Origin: Candidatus Saccharimonadota bacterium
GTDB lineage: Bacteria > Patescibacteriota > Gracilibacteria > UBA4473
Assembly (NCBI GenBank): GCA_963677105.1
Contig: OY781871.1
Span: 120,001-152,000, forward strand
DNA length: 32,000 bases
Direction: 5' to 3'
In this document: positions 2,959 to 32,000 of the stretch, in pieces
How positions within the stretch are numbered: the stretch's first letter is position 1
Layout: each line of letters opens with the position of its first letter
Made by a program: the position numbers and the translations under genes
Notes under the pieces: model-generated
Told to the model about the DNA's origin: nothing
The model's database searches: none
The model's input: only the letters and a program-made list of their open reading frames with translations

Positions 2959-2967
2959 ACAAAAAAT

Positions 2968-2996
2968 TTGCCTCTTTCTTTTAAAAATTTTATAAT
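2968..2996 (+). promoter_or_regulatory. Sigma70-like promoter candidate immediately after the nrdD stop
   Basis: TTGCCT (2968-2973), 17-nt spacer, TATAAT (2991-2996). The ATG of the glycyl-radical mini-ORF lies at 3022. AT-rich context, so a chance match is possible. Confidence 0.4.
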
Positions 2997-3021
2997 TTAT
3001 TTCCTAACCTTTTCACCACTT

Positions 3022-3207
3022 ATGAGTGACTCCAACTCGGCTTCAGACCACAACTCTAATCGCACAAAATGCGAAATCTGGACACGTGTGATGGGATATC
3101 ACCGACCAGTTTCTCACTTTAATATTGGGAAAAAAGCAGAACATTATTCACGGGAACACTTTCAAGAATGTGCTTGTGCAAACTCAGCTTTTTGTGAAAA
3201 GTTTTAG
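3022..3207 (+). CDS. NrdD C-terminal glycyl-radical segment encoded as a separate 61-aa ORF (same frame as nrdD)
   Basis: The translation contains KCEIWTRVMGYHRPVSHFNIGKKAEHYSREHF, the canonical class III RNR C-terminal glycyl-radical motif (RVxGY..P....N.GK..E). The ORF track extends it to a TTG at 2968. The first ATG is at 3022. Confidence 0.65.
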   Translation: MSDSNSASDHNSNRTKCEIWTRVMGYHRPVSHFNIGKKAEHYSREHFQECACANSAFCEKF

Positions 3208-3267
3208 GAAAAATTTTGAACTCGAATTTTAAAACCTCAAGTTCTTTTTTGAACCTTTTTAAAAAAC

Positions 3268-3507
3268 ATGAATGGAATTCTTATTACGACTACGACATGT
3301 CCGAAGTGTCCTGCGATGAAAACATGGGTTGCAGACAATGTGAAATTCGATGTATTAATCATCGATGAAACACATCCTGAGTTCGCAGATTTGTTACAAA
3401 CATATAACGTAACTACGGCTCCAACATTTATTATTGAGGAAAACGGAGAAGAAGTTTTTCGTGGAAATGATGATTACGAAATAGAAGATTTTTTGAAAAA
3501 TCTCTAA
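3268..3507 (+). CDS. Small glutaredoxin/thioredoxin-fold redoxin (NrdH-like)
   Basis: 79 aa with an N-terminal beta-strand followed by a CPKC dithiol motif (ILITTTTCPKCPAMK) and the later TAPTF..G pattern of the thioredoxin fold. It sits between nrdD and nrdG. Confidence 0.65.
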   Translation: MNGILITTTTCPKCPAMKTWVADNVKFDVLIIDETHPEFADLLQTYNVTTAPTFIIEENGEEVFRGNDDYEIEDFLKNL

Positions 3508-16477: not shown

Positions 16478-17518
16478 TCAAGTTTTTGACTCAAGCTTCA
16501 ATCCCAAATGGCTCCACGCCGCATTCGTTGCCGTTCTTCCACGAGCCGTTCGCTGTAATAATCCTTCTCGAATTAAGAATGGTTCTATCATGGCTTCAAT
16601 CGTTCGTTCATCTTCTCCAATAGCTGCCGCTAGAGTACTCAATCCTGTTGGTCCACCAGAGAATTTAGAACATAATGTTTGTAAAAATTCTTGATCTGCA
16701 CGATCTAAACCAATTGCATCGATTGAGAGGCTTTTTAATGACTCCTTCACTACAGACATAGTAATTTTTCCTTGATGAACTATTTCTGCAAAATCTCGAA
16801 CTCTTCGTAATAATCTATTTGCTATTCTCGGTGTTCGTCGTGAACTACGAGACAACAATTTTGCCGCATCCTTTTCAATAGAAATATCTAATATTCTGGC
16901 CGAACGTGTAATAATCTGCTCAATCTCTTCTTTTTCGTAATATCGTAATTTTTCTACATGCCCAAAACGATCACGCAACGGACCAGAAAGTAAACTCGCC
17001 ATTGTGGTTGCTCCCAGAAGAGTGAATTTTGGCAAATCAATCCGCATTGTGCGGGCAGATGGACCTTTTCCTACCACTAAATCGATAGCAAAATCCTCCA
17101 TTGCCGTGTACAAAATTTCTTCAACTGGCTGTCGTAATCGATGAATTTCATCAATGAATAGAAAATCATTTGGCTGTAAATTGGTTAAAATTGCTGCCAA
17201 ATCACCGGGTTTTTCTAATGCTGGTCCAGATGTCATACGCAAATTTGCTCCCATTTCTGCTGCAAGAATTCCTGCAATAGTTGTTTTCCCTAATCCCGGA
17301 GGACCATAAAAAAGAGCATGATCAAGGGGATCTCCTCTTTTTTTCGCGGCAGCAATAAATACTTTCATGTTTTTTTTCACCTCTGTCTGCCCTAAATAAT
17401 TTTTAAAATCTTTTGGACGAAGAGTATTTTCAAACCGATCATCTCCACCTGAATCCGCACTCACTACTGACGTATTGAGTTTTTGAGAATCATTGTTCAA
17501 CATCTCATCTTCTATCAT
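16478..17518 (-). CDS. ruvB: Holliday junction branch-migration helicase RuvB
   Basis: LRPKDFKNYLGQ, Walker A GPPGLGKTT, Walker B FIDEIHRL, and the RuvB C-terminal winged-helix region. The start is taken at MIEDEM (17518). TGA stop. Confidence 0.9.
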   Translation of the reverse strand: MIEDEMLNNDSQKLNTSVVSADSGGDDRFENTLRPKDFKNYLGQTEVKKNMKVFIAAAKKRGDPLDHALFYGPPGLGKTTIAGILAAEMGANLRMTSGPALEKPGDLAAILTNLQPNDFLFIDEIHRLRQPVEEILYTAMEDFAIDLVVGKGPSARTMRIDLPKFTLLGATTMASLLSGPLRDRFGHVEKLRYYEKEEIEQIITRSARILDISIEKDAAKLLSRSSRRTPRIANRLLRRVRDFAEIVHQGKITMSVVKESLKSLSIDAIGLDRADQEFLQTLCSKFSGGPTGLSTLAAAIGEDERTIEAMIEPFLIREGLLQRTARGRTATNAAWSHLGLKLESKT

Positions 17519-17602
17519 TGTGCATAGTGTGGCAGATTTATAAAAGAGATACAAATTTCAAAAAAAAAGATATCAATATTATTTAAAGATTAAAACTCCA
17601 AA

Positions 17603-17637
17603 TCTGTTATTTAAAATTTGTTATTTGTACTTTGACA
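17603..17637 (+). repeat. Phased heptad array (TCTGTTA TTTAAAA) TTTGTTA TTTGTAC TTTGACA
   Basis: Three clean and two degenerate 7-nt TTTGNAN units in the ruvB upstream intergenic region. The last unit contains TTGACA. Confidence 0.5.
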
Positions 17638-17717
17638 AAAGTCCCTTTAAATAGCCCTTCTTTGTATACATTTTTTATACTTTAAAATGTTTTGTTTCTT
17701 GGATCAATATGAGTTTT

Positions 17718-17746
17718 TTGACAAATTTACTCTCCGTGAATATCAT
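17718..17746 (+). promoter_or_regulatory. Near-consensus sigma70 promoter facing the ORF-free structured locus
   Basis: TTGACA (17718-17723), 17-nt spacer, TATCAT (17741-17746). Confidence 0.6.
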
Positions 17747-17752
17747 GTCCTG

Positions 17753-18282
17753 AACATTCGGGTAGCGGGCAATTATTTTTGAAACGTTCCTACCCGGTGT
17801 TCCTCCTTCTCAGATCTTTCACACTTCAAGTTCCGGAGAGAATTAAGTAATTAATTCTCAAGTAACCCTTTTTTGATTCCTTGGTTCTCTCCGCTTTGCG
17901 ATGTCGTCTCCTAAGCCTAACCTCTTAGTTTAGATGCACCGCGAAACCGCGTAGAGGCAGATATTACGATTCGACTATCCTTAGACGACTCCGACCCATC
18001 TCGAAGCCGCCTCTCAATAGCCGGTTCGTGGTATTTTGAAAAATTTCCAAAGACCTCGTCTTTAGAAATTCTTCTTTCTTTTTTTACTATCCGTAGCCTA
18101 TAACTTCTTTGATTTCTTTTCAACGTTATTTCCTACATCATGGATACCGAGTGGAAACGCGGTCTTTAAAAATTTCCTCAGCAAGGCAGAGTTCGGGGGT
18201 GGTTTCCCCTTACTCCGTTCAGTCCTCTCAGTTGCACTTAATACTGCATTCTCGTAGAGATACTCTGGACGGAGTTTTTTTT
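17753..18282 (+). ncRNA. Unclassified structured non-coding RNA candidate of about 530 nt (strand inferred from promoter and terminator; could be two adjacent RNAs)
   Basis: There is no credible ORF. The region is visibly more G+C-rich than its flanks and contains many local helices: GGGTAG 17760-65 with CTACCC 17790-95; a 9-bp stem 17838-46/17851-59 with a GTAA loop; GTCGTCT 17903-09 with AGACGAC 17983-89; CGCG-AAAC-CGCG 17940-51; AATTTC/AAAGAC-CTC-GTCTTT/GAAATT 18042-70; and GGGG-TGGTTT-CCCC 18196-209. It ends with a 10-bp closing helix, CTCCGTTCAG 18213-22 with CTGGACGGAG 18265-74, followed by T8 (18275-82). Confidence 0.55.
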
Positions 18283-18288
18283 ATACAC

Positions 18289-18314
18289 AAAAAAAAGCGA
18301 AGCTTCCGCTTCGC
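18289..18314 (-). terminator. Rho-independent terminator of rpsA
   Basis: GCGAAGC (18297-18303) pairs with GCTTCGC (18308-18314), followed on the minus strand by a run of eight T (18296-18289). Confidence 0.8.
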
Positions 18315-18330
18315 CTTTCCGGTTTTCTAC

Positions 18331-18358
18331 TTTGGTATTTCCAGTTTGTTATTTGGAA
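18331..18358 (+). repeat. Phased heptad array TTTGGTA TTTCCAG TTTGTTA TTTGGAA
   Basis: Four contiguous 7-nt units, one of them with TTTC, between the rpsA stop codon and its terminator. Confidence 0.5.
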
Positions 18359-18383
18359 ACACAAAAATTTATTTTTGGGTCGA

Positions 18384-19439
18384 TTAGACTTTTTTCAAGT
18401 CAATTCGATGTGAATCAAAGTTAATTTCTTCAATTTCTCCAGAAAACTCTTCGCCTTCTTCAATCTTCAATTCTGTATGATCTTCCACTCCAAATTGTTC
18501 AAGACTAATTGCCCCCATAACTTCTTTTTCGATTTCCAAAAATACTCCATTTGCATTCCAACGAACCACTTTCCCAGATACTTTTTGTCCAACAGTATAT
18601 GCTGAAACTTTTTCTTTCCATGGATCTTCTGTTAACCGTTTCACTGAAAGCGATAATTTATCACTCTCGATACCAATTACTAATACTTCCACTTTATCTC
18701 CTAAAACATATTTTTTACCTGGATTTGAAACATGTCCCCAATCAAGCTCTGACAAGTGAACAAGTCCTTCTGCTCCTCCAAAAGTAACAAATATTCCAAA
18801 TTTAACGACTCCAGAAACATGTCCTTCGACAATATCTCCTACACGCAAATTTTTCAGTGTGTCTTTTTTCTGATCATCATATGCCGCACGCTCTGAAACA
18901 ATCAATTTTCCTTTTTCTCGATCTGCGTTTAAAACACGAACTACAAAATCTTTTCCCATATGATCCTGCAATCGACGTAAAATCTCTCCTGCTTCTGCAC
19001 CATCTACTCGTGGGTAATTAAGTGGTGTTAATTGTGATACTGGTAAAAATGCACGAATTCCTTTATATGAAGCCAAAAGTCCTCCTTTATTTGCTTCTGT
19101 AATTCTCACTTTCAACGTACGAGCATCGTCCATAGCTTCGTGAAGTTCTGCCCAAACTGCTTCTTGAGAAGCACGACGTAAAGACATTACCACTAAACCT
19201 AAATCATTTTCCGCATTAATAACAAATGCTTCTAACTGACTTCCAATTTCAACATCTTCAACTGTTACACCAAAACCTGTTGCTTCTTTTTTGGTAATAA
19301 TTCCAGTCATTCCCCCTTCTAAATCAATAAGAATTCGTGAAGAAGTAACATCCACTACTGTTCCTTTTACTGTTTGACCAGCACGATAAAGAACAGGCGT
19401 TGCCTTAGCGAGAAGGTTATCCATTTCTTTTACAACCAT
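18384..19439 (-). CDS. rpsA: 30S ribosomal protein S1 (four S1/OB repeats)
   Basis: Repeated S1-domain pattern (G..V.G.V......G..V.L..G..G..H.SE), for example VGDIVEGHVSGVVKFGIFVTFGGAEGLVHLSEL. Confidence 0.85.
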   Translation of the reverse strand: MVVKEMDNLLAKATPVLYRAGQTVKGTVVDVTSSRILIDLEGGMTGIITKKEATGFGVTVEDVEIGSQLEAFVINAENDLGLVVMSLRRASQEAVWAELHEAMDDARTLKVRITEANKGGLLASYKGIRAFLPVSQLTPLNYPRVDGAEAGEILRRLQDHMGKDFVVRVLNADREKGKLIVSERAAYDDQKKDTLKNLRVGDIVEGHVSGVVKFGIFVTFGGAEGLVHLSELDWGHVSNPGKKYVLGDKVEVLVIGIESDKLSLSVKRLTEDPWKEKVSAYTVGQKVSGKVVRWNANGVFLEIEKEVMGAISLEQFGVEDHTELKIEEGEEFSGEIEEINFDSHRIDLKKV

Positions 19440-19560: not shown

Positions 19561-19661
19561 ACCGTCGCTGCTAAATTACAGCAATATTCGTACTTTGATC
19601 TTTTTATTTGATATTTAAAACAGAGCGACTTTACAATACTGTTCTTCGCTCTAAAATAATT

Positions 19662-24573: not shown

Positions 24574-27500
24574 TCATGGTTTTACACAAGAATTATCGGG
24601 CGTATAATTTCCGAGTTTCTGAATCTCTGAAAGACTTAAGGCTCGATTGAAAACTCGAACTTCATCAATCTCTGCGTCTGAGGATGTCATCGCCGGACTA
24701 TCAATTCGTCCACCAATATATAGATCTCGTCCTGGCTCATTATTTAAAGTAGTTGCTCCAATATTATTCGTACCTCTCTCTACTCCATCAATATATAATT
24801 TTATATCTGTTCCATCAAAAACTCCTACTAAATGATACCAGGTATTTATTGATAATGCAGTAATATTATCCGTAACATATTGCTGTGGAACATCTGATTC
24901 AATATAAAATTGAGGAACATCAGAATTATTGTCTCCAATCATGAGAGCCCATTCACTGTCTCCTGAACCTTTCCATTTATTTACTCCTGCCGTATTTGCA
25001 TATCCTATACTACTTACCGTTTTTCTAACCCAAAAAGACACTGTCATGGCTCCAGAAAAATCCAACGAACTGTCGTCTGGTGTAATCGTAATTCCTCCTT
25101 TTAATGCATCACCTCTACTTCCTCCTCCAGTAACCCACGTTCCACCGGATGTAGTAGCATCATTTTCAAACTGAGACCAATCCGCAACAGTTCCTCCACT
25201 TCCCTCTTCAAATGCTAAGTACATTTTTGATCCTTCCAGTTCTGCTTCACAATTTCCCAATCGAGCTGTATTTTTTTGTACTAATTTTCCTCCGGATTTC
25301 ATTCTAATTTTTTGTGTTTCTCCTCCAAATCCAATTTTTGTAGAACCTTCCATTCGCATTGTAATACCATTATTTATGATCCAGTCTCCATACAATTGAT
25401 GTATTTCATCCACAAAAGTACAACTTTGTGTCGGCGTCCAATCCCCTGTTAATGGCGGAATACATGAATCAGGTTTACATTCCCCACGATAACAAGAACT
25501 CGTTCCGGTCCCTCCATCACTACATTGAATATCAAGCGTACAAGTTTCAGCTAAGGCTAAACACATTTTTGTTTTTGCCCATTCTGGGAAACGTCCAACT
25601 CCCTGTGAAACCATTGGCGGAACTCCATCGGCAAATCCAAATATCAATCCATTCGAAGTATCATCTGACTCAACCGTCCAAACTTCATCAGAATCTGTTC
25701 CAACAGTAATTGTGTCCGTATACCAAGCTCCTGCTGGAGTATGTGTCGCAGTTGATCCTTTTGATGTCCCACCAAATTCTTTAAATGTATATCCCGTTGT
25801 TCCCCCTGATAAATAATACATTTTAAAATCAAATGTACTTCCTGCCTGAGAATCTACCCAAAAAGAATAGGGAATCGGTGTTGTGGAATTATATTCTTGA
25901 TCAGCAAGCACTTCTAAATCAGCAGTACAAACATGCGATAAATCTGATATCGAATCTGCACGAACGAAATCTGTATCAAACACAACATAATTTCGAACAT
26001 CTGTTCCGCTGGTCACAATTTTAAATTGCCAAATCCCTAGGTCAGTTGTTGAAGGAATCGTAATTTTTTTCCATCGTAAATCCGAAACGGGATCTGTAGA
26101 TAAAGTTGTTCCATCATCATTAAAACATCCTGTTGATGTATTCGTTGGATCACATGTTCCTGATGTCCACGAAGTAATGGTTGCACTGGATACAGCCGTT
26201 CCATTAGGGCGATATAACATAATCGATGTTGTATCTGTTCCTGCTGTATCATTTCCATCTCTCATTGCTATAGTAATATTTACTTCATTTCCTGCAGATC
26301 GTTCAAACCAAAAGTTTTTATCACCATTTCGTGACGAAGATAATACCTGACACGTTGGTGTTCCGTCGTCATCTTCATCGTAACAAAATTTTGAATCCAC
26401 TATTCCTCCTTCTAAGTAACTTGTCCCATTATTACTACACGGCTCTGTTTCATTTGCGGTACAATCTGATTGACATTCTCCAGCTACACAAAGCGTACTA
26501 TCACAAAAACTTCCATTATCGCAATAGTTTGTAATTTTCGTTGTATCAGTACTTTCAAACGTTGAACTATTTCCTAATGAATCTTTTGAGGTATATCGAA
26601 ATTGATGACACATTTCTACTGATCCAGAAGTAGAATAATTTGTCGCCGCCGCAGTTTCATTTACCCCGGCATCAGTCCATGTTCCAAATGTTCCACACGT
26701 TGATCCAATTAATATTGCTGTTCGAACTTCTAATAAATAATCACTATCTGTCGTAGACATTCCATTGTTATCTGTTCCCGGAGATACTGTTACAGAAATC
26801 GTTGTGGAATTTTGTAATCCATCAAAATGAGAAACACTTCCATTTATTGGTCCTGTTGCATCTACACAATCATTACTATTACAACTAAATCCTACAGGAC
26901 ATTCTGAACCCGTATCACAATCTTTCCATATCCCTCCATCACAAAAATCGTTATCTCCGTCGCCATCTACATCGGATCCAGCAAATCCTGCTGTAGTACA
27001 CGTATTCCCCGCCGCACAATCTGTAGCCGCATTACAACAAGCCGTGTCATCCGTAATTGTACCGTCCATTGTTCCATCACTTGCCGCCGTTGTGCGAGCA
27101 TATTCATCAGTATCATCTCCACAACAAGTAATTGCTGCCACTTCTCCTCCAAGATTCCAATTATTTCCATCGTTCGTACATGTAGTTGAATCAGAATCTT
27201 GCGCATACCACACACCACTTCTACATTGCTCTGTATCTGTTCCATCTCCACCTCCTGTGTCTCGAAACGTATTATTTGTATAACATCCATATTGTTCTGT
27301 TACATTTCCTTGTAAAGAGTCATCCACACAGTCTGTACTATTTGGACAACATCCTGTAGAACTTGCTCCATCTGCTCCAGAACCAGTTTCATCAATCTTA
27401 TATCCAAACATTACTCCTCCAAATCCAGTATCCCATTCTCGAATCTCCATCTGCGCAAAATGCCCTGAAGCATCTGCAAAATCCATTACATTATTATGAC

Positions 27501-30500
27501 TCCATATGTCAGCTGTAGTTCCTGAATGACTAGTTGTCCATGTTGTTGTGTCTCCCTGGTCGTAGGTAACCGTAATAGCATTTACATTGCTTTCGTTTGA
27601 ATCATATACATTTACACGAACACATAAATCTCCTGAAGAATAATCACTTGGTTGATACGCATGATCTCCACAATAGTCACCTACTGAAGAATCTCCATCT
27701 GTAAAATGATTCCCTGCACTATAATTTGTAGTAGTAACCTGCCCCATGGTCAACATCTCAACAGTACGACAAGTATTTGAATATGAACAAGCTCCGGCAT
27801 AAATACCAAGATTATCTCCCACACAAATTTCATCCGATGCACAGTCCGTATCTACTAAACATTCTTCAATAACAACTGTTGTACTACTACTCCACGCTGA
27901 TTCCTGAGATAGACCATCACGTGATCGAACAAACAAGAAGTTATCTCCTACACTTCCTGTAAAACTTGCACTCGCTGTCCCACTCCAACTGCTACTAGTA
28001 CATCCTGTAGTCGTATTGCTTGTGTTATGACAAAATTGATATTCAACAGAACCAGCACAACCCGTATCGGTTACCGTATTAGAAGTAACGGTTATATTCG
28101 TATCTGCCGTCGGCGTTGTTGGTTGATTGATTGTTGGAATCGGCGGGGCAGAATTATCAAATGTTGCAACCGGTGAAACACAATTAACTGTATTTCCATC
28201 TACATCAGAAATTTCTTCCGTACAAGTATTTCCACTTACTGTAACGGTACAAGTTCCTCCTGCGTCAGATATTCCTGATCCTGAATCTGTTGATCCACTC
28301 AATATAAAGTCCTGACTCGAACCAGTAACACATTGATCTGAACTCGGATCCCATGTTCCACAAACTGGATCTATATTATCAATACAATCACTTGATACAC
28401 AATTATATCCTGTTAAACATTGAGCTGCTGTAGAACAATCTTTCCATGTTCCTCCATCACAATAATCAATATCAGTATCGCCATCTACATCTGCTCCAGC
28501 CGATCCCGCAGTTGTACATACATTTGCGGCAGCACAATCTGTGGCTGCATTACAACAAGCTATAGAATCTGTAATCGTTCCATCCATCGATCCATCACTT
28601 GCTGGCGTTGCTCTAGAATATTCATTCGCATCATCTCCACAACAATTGGTTGAAGCTATTTCTCCTCCTAAATTCCACCCCCCTTCATTCCAGTTTTCTG
28701 CTCGAACACAAAGGTTACATCCTGTACTATCTGAATCCAATTGAATCGCATTCTCCGTACAAACTTCTCCACCAGACGTGTATGAAGTAAATGTTCCTCC
28801 TGATCGAATTGTCGGACAACTATCGTCTAATGTTGCCTCCGTTTGACACGTACCATTTGTATCACAGTATTTATCTACACACTGTCCAAATGTCGTAGAA
28901 GTATAAGCTGTATCTGTGTCATCACACCCACTTGCAGCACAACAACACGAATCATTTGAAGTTGATTTTTCTGATTCAATCGTACAATCTTGATCCCATA
29001 CTAAAACACAATCTTTATTACTCGATGCACTCAAAGAAGCAACTACTCCTGTATATCCTCCTCCAGTAGAAGAAAGTATTCCCGTTACATCACAACCCGA
29101 AGTAATTGAAACTTCTGTAACTCCTGTTGCCGCAGTAATTGAAGATGTATATTCTATGTTCGCCCACGCAAGAGCATCTGTTTCTCCTACTTGAATTGTT
29201 TCCGTCCATCGCTCTTTTGGTGAAGTTGTTGGCGCAACACACCAGTCTGATCGTGTGTCGTCAACTGTAGTTGTCTTTGTAACCACTGAGCCTTCTTTCC
29301 ATTTGAAAGTATACGATATCTGTCCACTCGCTGGAACTGTCAATGACTGATTTCCACAATCTATTGCAGTATACGTTCCTCCTGCCCCAGAAACACACGC
29401 ATCATTTAATGTTACATCTGCATCTACATCTGCCGAATTTGAAACGGTTACCGTACATTTTTCAAAATCATCTCCTCCAGCAATACTCGTCGAATCCGTA
29501 TCTTGTTCTACCGTACACGCAGAAACTGAAATTGCATCATCCCAAGTATAACAAAGTGATTGCTGTCCAATAGTGCTATCTGGCGCATGAATATCAAAAT
29601 CAACGGAATTTCCTGCAACACTTGAAAATCCATATTCATGTGTATCAATATCTGGATCATATTCTGGCGCTGCAATCGCATATGAATAATCCGCAGAAGG
29701 ATATAATGAATAAAATCGTTTCACCCAAAATTTATCTAATGTAAATACTCCGCTTCCATTATTCCACGCAATTTCAGCCGTTACGCCCCAATAATTTTCG
29801 TGGGAAATTATTAAATCTTGGTCACCATCATTATCCAAATCGTAATTGGTGATTCCACCATAATCATATGTGTCAAACAACATCGAACCTCTCGAGAAAT
29901 TCTGACTTCCATCATTTGTATAGAGATAATAATCCCCACTTGATCCAGTAGATTTAATATAATCTACATCGCCATCTCCAGTAAAATCAGCGGCTGTAAT
30001 TCCATAAGAAAGCCATGTGTCAGTGTCTTTTTGAACAGGAGCATCAAATGTATCATCTCCATTTCCATAATAAATATATGTCCCCGAACCATACATTTGA
30101 GCAATAACATCCATATTCCCATCGTCATCGAAGTCTGCTGCATCCATCCCTGAAACATAGCTTCCCGCATTTCCTGCTAAAGACAAAGCTGTGTGAGTAA
30201 AACTCCAACTTCCACCATTTTCAAAATAATGTTCTCCCTCATTTTCATCAATTCCAAAAATATCGTAATCTCCATCGTTATCGAAGTCTGCTACCGCTAA
30301 TCCTCGAATCTCATCTCCGGGGAAATAATCACTAGTAGTAACATATTGACTCGTAAATGTTCCAGAAGCTGATCCTGAATAAATTTGAATATCGCTATCT
30401 CCTCCGGATAAAATATCGAAATATCCATCGTTATTAAAATCCGCTACTTTCCCGTCTAAAGAATCATCTGTTCCTTCAAATAAATCTCCTTGATATTCCA

Positions 30501-32000
30501 ACACTCCTAATCCACTATCTCCATATATATTTGAATTCCAAACTTTTCCATCTCTATCAAAAATTGATACAAATATATCTTTCTGTATAAAATCTCCTGA
30601 ACACGTTGATCCATCATATACTGACCAACTATCTACTCCTGATGATAATGTTTCCGTATAATTCTGCGACCAACCAGCTCCTCGAACTGTCCCATCTGGA
30701 TTATTTACTGTTACCGTTTTTTTGTATGTCAAATCTTGTACTGCATCTCCTGCAGAAACTGTAATTGATTCTTGTGTGGCAGTTCCCCATGAAACAGTTG
30801 CTCGTACTGCACTATCACTATATGAGCTCGAATCATAGTTATTCGCCTGATCTCTACATACCACTCTATATGCCCAATCTCCATCTCCAGCAAAATCTGG
30901 ACATCCAGTACTTCCAACTCCAGCTCCCGTAACTGTACAACTACAACTACAACTTGTCCCCGTGCAAGCTTTCCAATCTGTTCCATTTCGTGTAACTCCA
31001 TTTTGAGTTCCCTGAAACTGACATTCTTTCATTCCATCATTTGTCGCATTTGTTGTGTCCATGTCATAACACGTTCCAGAAAGCGTCACTGTTTCCGTAT
31101 CATTAAATATCATAGAAGAAATACTCGCTGGTCCAGATGTTGGTTTATTATCCCATTCCGTCGTAAAATTAAGATTAAATTCACTTGATTCATTGTCTCG
31201 TACATCACGACATTTTATGTAGAAATTGTATGAACTTTCATCAATAATCTGTAATCGATGAAAGTGTGTTGTTTTATAATCATCATCCATTGGAACCATA
31301 TCGCCCCATGTATCTCCCGTCACAGGAGAATATCGACAAAGCGCTAATTCATCAGTATTAATTTTCCATACATACTCATATGTATTTTCTTCGGAAAGAA
31401 CCGGATCTGCTACAGCTGTTCCATTCGATGCTGGCGTATTAAAAGAAATGGTTGGCGCCACTGTATCAATCATGAATTCATAAGAATATTCCAGTGGTGA
31501 TCCATCTGTCGTATGAATGAGTGTTGTCCCATTATCATCTTTCATACGAACACGAACACGATAATCTCCATCCGTTTGTGTTCCTGTATTCCATCCTCCT
31601 GCCGTATCCCAAACCGCAGCAGTATCTAATTCTATCGTGCTCGCAAGTGCTGCAGAAGCATCTGACACAATTGTTGAAACCAGATTCCATGTAGAAGTTA
31701 CATATTTTTCTACGACAATGTCATAGGTGAGATCAAACGAACTTCCTCCAGTATTTTTAATATAGGATTCTGGCATCATATTTTCTGCCTTATCCCAAAT
31801 TATTTTCGGTGCGCCAACTCCATGCGCTTGAGGATCTGGACGTCCAGTAATCAACATTGAGTCTGAGTAATAATACCCCATAGTTGGGCTTCCTGTATAT
31901 GTCGCTTCTGGAACTCCATTAGTAGGACCACTCGTTGATTCATAAAAATCAATTGAATTTGAATTTGGATAAATAACTTCTATAACACCATCATCATCCG
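24574..32000 (-). CDS. Giant secreted/surface protein (more than 2470 aa, N-terminus outside the window) with FG-GAP/VCBS-like repeats, Cys-rich modules and a C-terminal LamG-like domain
   Basis: A single uninterrupted frame. I checked codon by codon that it stays open from the track M at 31881 to the window edge. The composition is Thr/Ser/Gly/Asp/Asn-rich. TGA stop at 24574-24576. Confidence 0.85.
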   Translation of the reverse strand, partial: DDDGVIEVIYPNSNSIDFYESTSGPTNGVPEATYTGSPTMGYYYSDSMLITGRPDPQAHGVGAPKIIWDKAENMMPESYIKNTGGSSFDLTYDIVVEKYVTSTWNLVSTIVSDASAALASTIELDTAAVWDTAGGWNTGTQTDGDYRVRVRMKDDNGTTLIHTTDGSPLEYSYEFMIDTVAPTISFNTPASNGTAVADPVLSEENTYEYVWKINTDELALCRYSPVTGDTWGDMVPMDDDYKTTHFHRLQIIDESSYNFYIKCRDVRDNESSEFNLNFTTEWDNKPTSGPASISSMIFNDTETVTLSGTCYDMDTTNATNDGMKECQFQGTQNGVTRNGTDWKACTGTSCSCSCTVTGAGVGSTGCPDFAGDGDWAYRVVCRDQANNYDSSSYSDSAVRATVSWGTATQESITVSAGDAVQDLTYKKTVTVNNPDGTVRGAGWSQNYTETLSSGVDSWSVYDGSTCSGDFIQKDIFVSIFDRDGKVWNSNIYGDSGLGVLEYQGDLFEGTDDSLDGKVADFNNDGYFDILSGGDSDIQIYSGSASGTFTSQYVTTSDYFPGDEIRGLAVADFDNDGDYDIFGIDENEGEHYFENGGSWSFTHTALSLAGNAGSYVSGMDAADFDDDGNMDVIAQMYGSGTYIYYGNGDDTFDAPVQKDTDTWLSYGITAADFTGDGDVDYIKSTGSSGDYYLYTNDGSQNFSRGSMLFDTYDYGGITNYDLDNDGDQDLIISHENYWGVTAEIAWNNGSGVFTLDKFWVKRFYSLYPSADYSYAIAAPEYDPDIDTHEYGFSSVAGNSVDFDIHAPDSTIGQQSLCYTWDDAISVSACTVEQDTDSTSIAGGDDFEKCTVTVSNSADVDADVTLNDACVSGAGGTYTAIDCGNQSLTVPASGQISYTFKWKEGSVVTKTTTVDDTRSDWCVAPTTSPKERWTETIQVGETDALAWANIEYTSSITAATGVTEVSITSGCDVTGILSSTGGGYTGVVASLSASSNKDCVLVWDQDCTIESEKSTSNDSCCCAASGCDDTDTAYTSTTFGQCVDKYCDTNGTCQTEATLDDSCPTIRSGGTFTSYTSGGEVCTENAIQLDSDSTGCNLCVRAENWNEGGWNLGGEIASTNCCGDDANEYSRATPASDGSMDGTITDSIACCNAATDCAAANVCTTAGSAGADVDGDTDIDYCDGGTWKDCSTAAQCLTGYNCVSSDCIDNIDPVCGTWDPSSDQCVTGSSQDFILSGSTDSGSGISDAGGTCTVTVSGNTCTEEISDVDGNTVNCVSPVATFDNSAPPIPTINQPTTPTADTNITVTSNTVTDTGCAGSVEYQFCHNTSNTTTGCTSSSWSGTASASFTGSVGDNFLFVRSRDGLSQESAWSSSTTVVIEECLVDTDCASDEICVGDNLGIYAGACSYSNTCRTVEMLTMGQVTTTNYSAGNHFTDGDSSVGDYCGDHAYQPSDYSSGDLCVRVNVYDSNESNVNAITVTYDQGDTTTWTTSHSGTTADIWSHNNVMDFADASGHFAQMEIREWDTGFGGVMFGYKIDETGSGADGASSTGCCPNSTDCVDDSLQGNVTEQYGCYTNNTFRDTGGGDGTDTEQCRSGVWYAQDSDSTTCTNDGNNWNLGGEVAAITCCGDDTDEYARTTAASDGTMDGTITDDTACCNAATDCAAGNTCTTAGFAGSDVDGDGDNDFCDGGIWKDCDTGSECPVGFSCNSNDCVDATGPINGSVSHFDGLQNSTTISVTVSPGTDNNGMSTTDSDYLLEVRTAILIGSTCGTFGTWTDAGVNETAAATNYSTSGSVEMCHQFRYTSKDSLGNSSTFESTDTTKITNYCDNGSFCDSTLCVAGECQSDCTANETEPCSNNGTSYLEGGIVDSKFCYDEDDDGTPTCQVLSSSRNGDKNFWFERSAGNEVNITIAMRDGNDTAGTDTTSIMLYRPNGTAVSSATITSWTSGTCDPTNTSTGCFNDDGTTLSTDPVSDLRWKKITIPSTTDLGIWQFKIVTSGTDVRNYVVFDTDFVRADSISDLSHVCTADLEVLADQEYNSTTPIPYSFWVDSQAGSTFDFKMYYLSGGTTGYTFKEFGGTSKGSTATHTPAGAWYTDTITVGTDSDEVWTVESDDTSNGLIFGFADGVPPMVSQGVGRFPEWAKTKMCLALAETCTLDIQCSDGGTGTSSCYRGECKPDSCIPPLTGDWTPTQSCTFVDEIHQLYGDWIINNGITMRMEGSTKIGFGGETQKIRMKSGGKLVQKNTARLGNCEAELEGSKMYLAFEEGSGGTVADWSQFENDATTSGGTWVTGGGSRGDALKGGITITPDDSSLDFSGAMTVSFWVRKTVSSIGYANTAGVNKWKGSGDSEWALMIGDNNSDVPQFYIESDVPQQYVTDNITALSINTWYHLVGVFDGTDIKLYIDGVERGTNNIGATTLNNEPGRDLYIGGRIDSPAMTSSDAEIDEVRVFNRALSLSEIQKLGNYTPDNSCVKP
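24577..25222 (-). other. LamG / concanavalin-A-like lectin domain at the C-terminus of the giant protein
   Basis: LAFEEGSGGTVADWS...MTVSFWVR...WYHLVGVFDGTDIKLYIDGVE...LYIGGR...DEVRVFNRALSLSEI matches the LamG (laminin G-like) jelly-roll pattern. Confidence 0.7.
26860..27165 (-). repeat. Cys-rich module, copy B (about 102 aa)
   Basis: WNLGGEVAAITCCGDDTDEYARTTAASDGTMDGTITDDTACCNAATDCAAGNTCTTAGFAGSDVDGDGDNDFCDGGIWKDCDTGSECPVGFSCNSNDCVD. It aligns with copy A along its whole length. Confidence 0.8.
28378..28680 (-). repeat. Cys-rich module, copy A (about 101 aa)
   Basis: WNLGGEIASTNCCGDDANEYSRATPASDGSMDGTITDSIACCNAATDCAAANVCTTAGSAGADVDGDTDIDYCDGGTWKDCSTAAQCLTGYNCVSSDCID. Confidence 0.8.
29800..30460 (-). 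repeat. FG-GAP/VCBS-like Ca-binding beta-propeller repeats
   Basis: Five D-x-[DN]-x-D-G-x-x-D loops at propeller-like spacing: ADFNNDGYFDI, ADFDNDGDYDI, ADFDDDGNMDV, ADFTGDGDVDY and YDLDNDGDQDL. Confidence 0.75.

Follow-up and report, generated by a model that had tools for sequence, protein, structure and literature searches.

Introduction

The large, highly structured RNA classes known from bacteria are few and comprise the ribosomal RNAs, RNase P RNA, transfer-messenger RNA (tmRNA), group I and group II introns, and the OLE, GOLLD, ROOL, HEARO and raiA RNAs. Each of the classes that have been characterised brought unexpected biochemistry, such as catalysis, membrane ribonucleoproteins (RNPs) or RNA-only cages. 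Bacteria of the Candidate Phyla Radiation (CPR) have genomes of ~1 Mb, in which dispensable sequence finds scant space, and hardly any of their RNA biology has been explored; on both counts a new class of CPR RNA would be notable, if true. Here we describe a candidate for such a class, encoded between the genes ruvB and rpsA in a 32,000-nucleotide (nt) stretch of DNA from a CPR bacterium (assembly GCA_963677105.1, contig OY781871.1, positions 120,001 to 152,000). This stretch is called the window below, and coordinates refer to it unless a homologous locus is named.

The RNA gene covers positions 17752-18282 of the plus strand and measures ~530 nt, as concluded from nhmmer and covariance model (CM) searches, from covariation and from a strand-specific count of G·U pairs. 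We put the probability that it encodes a stand-alone structured noncoding RNA (ncRNA), and founds a family that is not in Rfam, at roughly 75%. It is also likely that it represents a previously undescribed class of large RNA (0.5-0.65 kb), which is vertically inherited in a CPR lineage and acts by its three-dimensional (3D) fold in a lineage-specific process. The original prediction, made from the letters of the window, had proposed a large, independently transcribed ncRNA outside the known classes, and this proposal is now supported by a conserved promoter and terminator, by covarying helices and by negative searches with Rfam and ARAGORN. In the literature and in Rfam we found no family or paper describing the RNA, which appears to be a new family. 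With the strand, the ends, the promoter, the terminator, a near-invariant junction, 17 loci and a core CM at hand, the family is defined well enough for direct testing.

Homologues and covariation

Homologues were collected from loci neighbouring RuvB genes, by scanning metagenome contigs with the 18-mer at 17886-17903, and by further RuvB look-ups. Comparison with related genomes by nhmmer, which the original prediction had suggested, yielded homologues at 16 other loci (designated by L numbers below), so that the family with the window counts 17 loci and ~14 distinct sequences. They fall into six subgroups, measure 509-647 nt, and occur in Peribacteria/Gracilibacteria-like CPR bacteria, among which the RuvB homologues also place the organism of the window. 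The nhmmer E-values for the 16 loci range from 1e-57 to 1e-255; in close relatives, the loci around the RuvB genes hold the RNA with E-values of 1e-99 to 1e-109. With a core CM of 143 positions, all members reach scores of 74-149 bits and one copy is found per locus, with no further copy in the 40 sources searched.

The 18-mer scan returned 30 stretches, 12 of which are true family members; the other 18, L087, L089 and L112 among them, matched by chance and are unrelated, GC-rich DNA that is mostly coding. The further RuvB look-ups added L118, L120 and L122, the last from an NCBI assembly labelled Candidatus Gracilibacteria bacterium (GCA_021734305.1). A viral origin was considered as well, and IMG/VR gave two chance matches and no family member.

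The consensus fold was computed with RNAalifold on 13 full-length sequences, and also for groups A and B separately, which gave a consistent architecture. In the 33 predicted pairs, 93.8% of the alignment cells are paired, as compared to 36-46% in controls in which the pairing partner was slid along the alignment. Compensatory changes are found in 14 of these pairs (4-7 in the slid-partner controls), and the covariation score of 0.35, against at most 0.12 in the same controls, was reached by none of 500 shuffles. The outer helix of the long arm described below contributes nine additional pairs, three of them compensatory.

Transcription signals and strand

The RNA gene is preceded by a sigma-70-type promoter (17718-17746, plus strand), with the -35 hexamer TTGACA at 17718-17723, a 17-nt spacer and the -10 hexamer TATCAT at 17741-17746. 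The near-consensus character that had been ascribed to this promoter is confirmed, since 11 of the 12 positions agree with the consensus and the element is conserved in the homologues: the pattern TTGAC[AG]-N16-17-TAnnnT stands directly before GUCYUGA, or a close variant of it, in 14 of 14 members checked and also in L122, and no member with its 5' end on the contig lacks the promoter. The GUCYUGA sequence itself (17747-17753) is conserved in all members just after the -10 hexamer, where it probably covers the discriminator and the start site rather than RNA structure. Because the -10 element ends at 17746, transcription would start near 17752-17753, at the first base of the 5' hairpin.

At the other end an intrinsic terminator (18212-18282, plus strand) is formed by a long hairpin, ACUCCGUUCAG...CUGGACGGAG, followed by eight U (18275-18282). 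Its stem covaries across groups (ACCGGC.../...GUCGGU, ACCACU/AGUGGU, CUCCACUUCC/GGAAGUGGAG) and contains G·U pairs on the plus strand where the minus strand would read A·C. Wherever a contig reaches the 3' end of a member, that member closes with a hairpin and a U-run, in most cases after an A-tract; terminators of this composition (A-tract, stem, U-tract) could work in both directions. The apical loop of the terminator (18236-18250) is CACUUAAUA-like in three subgroups, as seen in the window and in L109, L107 and L005, and since this loop is kept the hairpin may do more than terminate. The terminator of rpsA lies back-to-back with it on the minus strand (18291-18320), so that the arrangement described originally, a long closing helix with T8 abutting the rpsA terminator, holds in full (18212-18282 against 18320-18291).

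The functional strand is the plus strand, because G·U outnumbers A·C by 52 to 9 cells in the 33 RNAalifold pairs; canonical pairing amounts to 93.8% on the plus strand and 83.6% on the minus strand. Together with the conserved signals on the plus strand, this G·U excess makes the RNA antisense to ruvB and rpsA. Folding energy alone cannot pick the strand, since both strands fold better than dinucleotide shuffles (z = -5.1 for plus, -4.9 for minus). The latter value, and the location of both ruvB and rpsA on the minus strand, would suit a functional minus-strand RNA, namely a structured 5' leader of ruvB or a 3' untranslated region of rpsA. Such a leader or trailer is highly improbable in view of the G·U count and the lower canonical pairing on that strand, the more so as the conserved promoter and the U-tract terminator sit on the plus strand and the rpsA terminator separates rpsA from the RNA element.

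Predicted fold

The plus-strand RNA begins with a 5'-terminal hairpin (17752-17802), GAACAUUCGGGUAG...CUACCCGGUGUUC, which shows compensatory changes in group A (GGGUAG/CUACCC, GGGUG/CACCC, GGAGAG/CUCUCC) and has equivalents, GAACAGUU.../...GUUC, in L111 and L107. It is followed by the segment GAUCUUUCACA (17813-17823), conserved in all subgroups. The GAUCUUU at 17813-17819 within this segment is tentatively paired with AGAGUUC (18188-18194), just 3' of the long-range helix discussed below; some compensatory variation is seen in this helix, with a duplex energy that is not distinguishable from shuffles.

Next comes a helix (17834-17893) of CGGAGAGAA (17834-17842) with UUCUCUCCG (17885-17893), found by RNAalifold in group A and in the minimum free energy (MFE) fold of the window, with the GGAGAG strand lying upstream in groups A, C and D. 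This helix encloses a variable apical part, in which lies the GUAA-capped 9-bp stem (17838-17859) that had been singled out in the original prediction. The complementarity of that stem is real, but it occurs in this genome only; part of it coincides with the conserved GGAGAG strand, and in the MFE fold the competing, conserved long-range pairing is preferred to it.

The centre of the fold is the core 18-mer UCUCUCCGCUUUGCGAUG (17886-17903), which is identical in all members except L122, where position 1 is a C. It can be read as UCUCUCC GCUUUGC GAUGNCG, a three-helix junction with no unpaired base between the helices: UCUCUCC(G) pairs with the upstream (C)GGAGAG, GCUUUGC (17893-17899) forms the 5' strand of a long-range helix, and GAUGNCG starts a hairpin with a freely covarying outer stem. 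The 3' strand of the long-range helix, GCAAGGC (18181-18187), lies ~290 nt downstream within the conserved sequence AGCAAGGC. The seven pairs of this helix, with an invariant U·G, are formed in 98.9% of the cells, and ~280 nt are enclosed by them, including an AU-rich middle.

The long-range helix bears on the suggestion, also made originally, that this AU-rich middle might divide the locus into two adjacent smaller RNAs. A dip in G+C content does occur at 18025-18174, and local helices can be formed in each half. The conserved helix 17893-17899/18181-18187 bridges the dip, however, which argues for one RNA, not two; a scan shows no internal promoter or terminator, these signals being conserved at the outer ends only, and the dip corresponds to a variable hairpin region that accommodates a 130-nt insertion in one member. 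The division into two RNAs was therefore not borne out, and we regard it as very unlikely.

In the single RNA that we prefer, the long-range helix is predicted to enclose a series of further elements. The hairpin opened by the 18-mer, GAUGUCGUCU...AGAUGCAC (17900-17939), has 12 pairs of which six are compensatory, with an invariant base, an invariant G·U and a covarying outer stem; its UAGAC(A)A loop is conserved in several subgroups. A long arm (17939-18031) consists of an outer helix, CCGCGAAACCG/CCGGUUCGUGG (17939-17949/18021-18031), and an inner helix, AGAGGC (17953-17958)/GCCUCU (18009-18014), with a conserved GACGAC motif and a GAAGCCGCC segment (18003-18011) in its interior. The inner helix varies by group (GAGAGG/CCUCUC, AGAGGC/GCCUCU, AGAGAAG/CUUCUCU); MAFFT gave no single register for it across the groups, so it is described here by eye, and the core CM keeps one of its pairs only.

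The AU-rich variable hairpin region (18038-18088) differs in sequence and length between groups. In L108 the equivalent region (~1105-1330 of that locus) carries an insertion of ~130 nt. It is followed by the hairpin AUCCGUAG...CUAC-AUCAU-GGAU (18089-18145), of which the outer four base pairs covary (AUCC/GGAU, GCCU/AGGC, GUCC/GGAC, GUUC/GAAC, GUGC/GCAC), and by a short hairpin, CCGAGUG-GAAA-CGCGG (18147-18162), with five pairs, two of them compensatory. The short hairpin carries a conserved GNRA tetraloop (18154-18157), which is GAAA here and GAAA, GUAA or GUGA in relatives. An extra hairpin inside the long-range helix is present in some groups only. Downstream of the long-range helix, the hairpin GGGGG-UGGUU-UCCCC (18195-18209), with three compensatory changes in five pairs (variants GGCCC/GGGCU, GGAGG/CCUCC and CAGGG/CCCUG), leads to the terminator.

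Comparison with known RNA families

Searches against Rfam 15 with gathering thresholds gave no match in the whole window. At E-values up to 10 the region 17450-18450 gave, on both strands, weak terminator matches and snoRNA noise only, and the elements of L107 and L100 gave no family match; nor did eight homologue loci at E-values up to 1. ARAGORN found no transfer RNA (tRNA) and no tmRNA in the full 32 kb. The Rfam search on both strands and the tmRNA search, both of which had been proposed together with the original prediction, thus gave no housekeeping RNA and agree with its failure to match the locus to tmRNA, RNase P RNA or signal recognition particle (SRP) RNA.

One of the housekeeping RNAs to be considered is RNase P RNA. 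It resembles the present RNA in being the product of a stand-alone gene, structured and several hundred nt long, and in having a closing helix around a multi-helix domain, GNRA loops and the short sequence AGCAAGGC. The two differ in that the RNA described here is without the signatures of conserved regions I and V (CR-I and CR-V) and without the P4 pseudoknot, and that its 5' and 3' ends are not paired together. CR-I (GNAANNUCNGNG) and CR-V (ACNNNANNNNGNNUA) are reportedly universal in RNase P RNA and said to pair as the P4 pseudoknot.

One may ask whether the RNA is the RNase P RNA of this lineage, diverged past recognition by covariance models. The RNase P RNAs of CPR bacteria are known to be diverged and can escape the default Rfam thresholds: for 10 of 35 circular CPR genomes, a sub-threshold cmsearch and manual refolding were needed (Lui et al. 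2021, PMC8172020). The size and multi-helix architecture of the present RNA are ribozyme-like, and its plus strand contains several look-alikes. These are AGCAAGGC, which we take to be identical to positions 246-253 of Escherichia coli M1 RNA; AAACCGG, which is CR-V-like; and GAGUGGAAACGCGGU, which presumably resembles a segment of the Bacillus subtilis P RNA.

When the look-alikes are placed in the fold, a different picture emerges. AAACCGG covaries with the 3'-terminal CCGGUUU (ACCACU/AGUGGU in L005; ACUCCG.../...CGGAGU in group A) and is therefore a strand of the terminator stem, not of a P4 pseudoknot. A conserved, CR-IV-like AGCAAGGC does occur in the RNA. CR-IV of RNase P RNA has unpaired adenosines at J5/15, and the prediction here is a pairing of AGCAAGGC with the invariant GCUUUGC, a pairing of which both strands are invariant and show no covariation signal. 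Searches of 0.5-1 kb on either strand of the window, L107 and L100 gave no match to an RNase P model at E-values up to 10, and eight homologue loci gave none at E-values up to 1. Pattern searches for CR-I and CR-V on both strands of the 17 members returned only isolated matches in single sequences, at non-homologous positions. In addition, the RNase P RNA of two ~1-Mb Peregrinibacteria genomes could still be detected with cmsearch (Lui et al., PMC8172020). All in all, a strongly diverged RNase P RNA is an improbable explanation. An RNase P RNA on the minus strand was rejected as well, as GUGCAACUGAGAG, GUAAGGGGAAACC and GAAAGAUCUGAG are limited to this genome, where they are on the wrong strand. 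Look-alikes of RNase P RNA, tmRNA and SRP RNA are found on both strands, which indicates that such matches arise easily by chance; the partial tmRNA and RNase P motifs had been judged to be at chance level from the outset, and they are indeed not conserved across the family.

The present RNA resembles tmRNA in some short motifs and in being a structured RNA that is transcribed independently, between a promoter and a terminator of its own. A tRNA-like domain (acceptor stem, T-arm, CCA) was found neither by ARAGORN nor by Rfam, and no tag reading frame is conserved, a frame ending in ...LA being present in 2 of 13 members only. Moreover, canonical tmRNA genes (RF00023, 88-90 bits) are located on two of the contigs that carry the RNA, at a distance of ~8-9 kb from it (L095, 4077-4495, minus strand; L100, 12162-12583, plus strand), so that the RNA is not the single ssrA of these genomes. 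On these grounds tmRNA is excluded.

6S RNA and SRP RNA are likewise housekeeping RNAs with strong promoters, but they are far smaller (~100-270 nt). 6S RNA is a rod of ~180 nt with paired 5' and 3' ends and a large central bubble, whereas the 5' and 3' ends of the present RNA form separate hairpins, its length is 509-647 nt, and Rfam gives no match. The domain IV (helix 8) motif of SRP RNA is not present, and no Rfam match to this RNA was obtained at E-values up to 10. A small chance is left that an extreme variant of one of the housekeeping RNAs is seen here.

The ornate large ncRNAs offer a comparison in terms of size, since the 0.5-0.65 kb found here is in the class of OLE (~600 nt) and ROOL (~580 nt). 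As in OLE, ROOL, GOLLD and raiA, covarying helices are numerous, some pairings are long-range, the junction nucleotides are highly conserved, and coding capacity is lacking. No match was found to the covariance models of OLE, ROOL, GOLLD, HEARO or raiA. Host range differs too, being CPR bacteria here and Bacillota or Fusobacteria for the ornate ncRNAs. The present RNA occurs in single copy and in conserved synteny, and its inheritance appears to be vertical, whereas an association with phages or tRNAs is frequent for GOLLD and ROOL. Unlike the ornate ncRNAs, the present RNA also has a sigma-70 promoter of its own and a terminator that is built into the fold. Some ornate large ncRNAs proved to be parts of RNPs, or homo-oligomers made of RNA only (PMC12286853, PMC12054373).

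A riboswitch or other cis-acting leader was also considered and rejected: the terminator meets the 3' end of the opposite-strand gene rpsA, and the next plus-strand gene starts at 19608.

Coding capacity and genomic context

The gap between ruvB (16478-17554, minus strand, divergent from the RNA gene) and rpsA (18384-19439, minus strand, convergent with it, encoding ribosomal protein S1 of 351 amino acids (aa)) extends from 17555 to 18383. In these 829 nt there is no credible open reading frame (ORF), in agreement with the ORF-free stretch of ~830 nt noted originally: the gap contains ORFs of 31, 68 and 92 aa only, all of which are interrupted in close relatives, either by stops or by frameshifts. 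Reading TGA as a sense codon (genetic codes 4 and 25) yields no gene in the gap either, genes are closely packed elsewhere in the window when table 11 is applied, and with the standard or an alternative code no ORF in the gap is conserved among relatives. The contrast in base composition that had been reported for the locus is also found, with a G+C content of 0.39-0.52 in the core against 0.22-0.24 directly upstream, and with the dip to 0.33 at 18025-18174.

Five of the six subgroups share the gene order rpsA-RNA-ruvB. This conserved arrangement, together with the back-to-back position of the RNA and rpsA terminators and a pyrimidine-rich composition (C+U 59% in the window), could suggest a regulator tied to its neighbours, acting on S1 as a decoy or titrator, or on ruvB or rpsA as an antisense or divergent-promoter regulator. 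Binding of S1 to pyrimidine-rich single-stranded RNA is well established, but most of the present RNA is in covarying helices and not single-stranded, and its invariant junction and GNRA loop indicate a defined 3D fold rather than a sponge of repeated sites. The RNA overlaps neither ruvB nor rpsA. Furthermore, it is retained beside a tRNA gene on its promoter side in L108 (11-84, plus strand) and L088 (5784-5855, minus strand), where no ruvB or rpsA was detected along the available contig stretches. A regulator of this kind is for these reasons considered unlikely, and the position of the RNA gene beside rpsA and ruvB seems to reflect inherited synteny and not a functional operon.

Between the RNA promoter and ruvB, subgroup B has one or two small hypothetical ORFs of 112-151 aa, for which Pfam gave no match (L118, 1631-2494; L120, 2122-2460; L002, ~400-1290). 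The window does not contain them.

Interpretation and possible function

Several points weigh against a stand-alone ncRNA of a new family. The ~14 distinct sequences in six subgroups limit the covariation analysis, and the long-range helix, being invariant on both strands, offers conserved complementarity alone and no covariation. The transcript and its ends are read from sequence signals. The checks for RNase P, SRP and 6S RNA are confined to the window and the homologue loci, which is why a little likelihood is left for RNase P RNA, and the biochemical role put forward below is a guess. Finally, the RNA is absent from the spacer beside ruvB in L117, L119, L121, L123 and L085, and the RuvB identity of these loci to the window (65-79%) overlaps that of the distant carriers (69-73%). 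The RNA may thus be dispensable, or it may have been relocated in such relatives. At L119, on a contig of 1.29 Mb, the rpsA-ruvB spacer is occupied by ylxR.

Several related genomes do not have the family in the rpsA-ruvB spacer, as would be expected if the locus were spacer without a function, the remains of a gene, or an element of mobile or phage origin. Yet the covariation, the invariant core and the transcription signals persist at a RuvB identity of ~70%, the ORFs in the gap are broken in relatives, and the single copy in a conserved synteny, with no repeats and no true match to a viral contig, does not fit a mobile element, so that we consider any of these explanations extremely unlikely. 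Taken together with the tRNA neighbour in L088 and L108, the absence from the spacer in relatives rather points to an RNA that is an autonomous gene.

For such an autonomous RNA, of which the gene, the strand, the family and the helices are established by the comparisons above, the following course of events can be envisaged. Synthesis would be started by its own near-consensus sigma-70 promoter and ended by the intrinsic terminator, which is itself part of the conserved fold. A 5' hairpin would be followed by the near-invariant 18-nt junction joining three helices, and the long-range helix would enclose a hairpin, the long arm, the AU-rich hairpin, a further hairpin and the GNRA-capped hairpin, after which the hairpin at 18195-18209 and the terminator hairpin would complete the fold. 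The folded RNA could then be the functional entity in trans, as a protein-binding scaffold or RNP core, a ribozyme or a self-assembling RNA. Ribozymes and ornate ncRNAs are resembled in the strong, constitutive-type promoter, the inclusion of the terminator in the fold, the near-invariant junction, the conserved GNRA and other loops, and the multi-branched domain. An activity in trans through the 3D fold is suggested by these features, with considerable uncertainty, and we infer that the RNA is neither an antisense RNA that pairs with an mRNA nor a cis-regulator.

Elsewhere in the window, a second ORF-free gap of ~550 nt, without an Rfam match, is present at 2959-3507. A giant ORF of more than 2474 aa (24574-31998, minus strand) runs past the end of the window.

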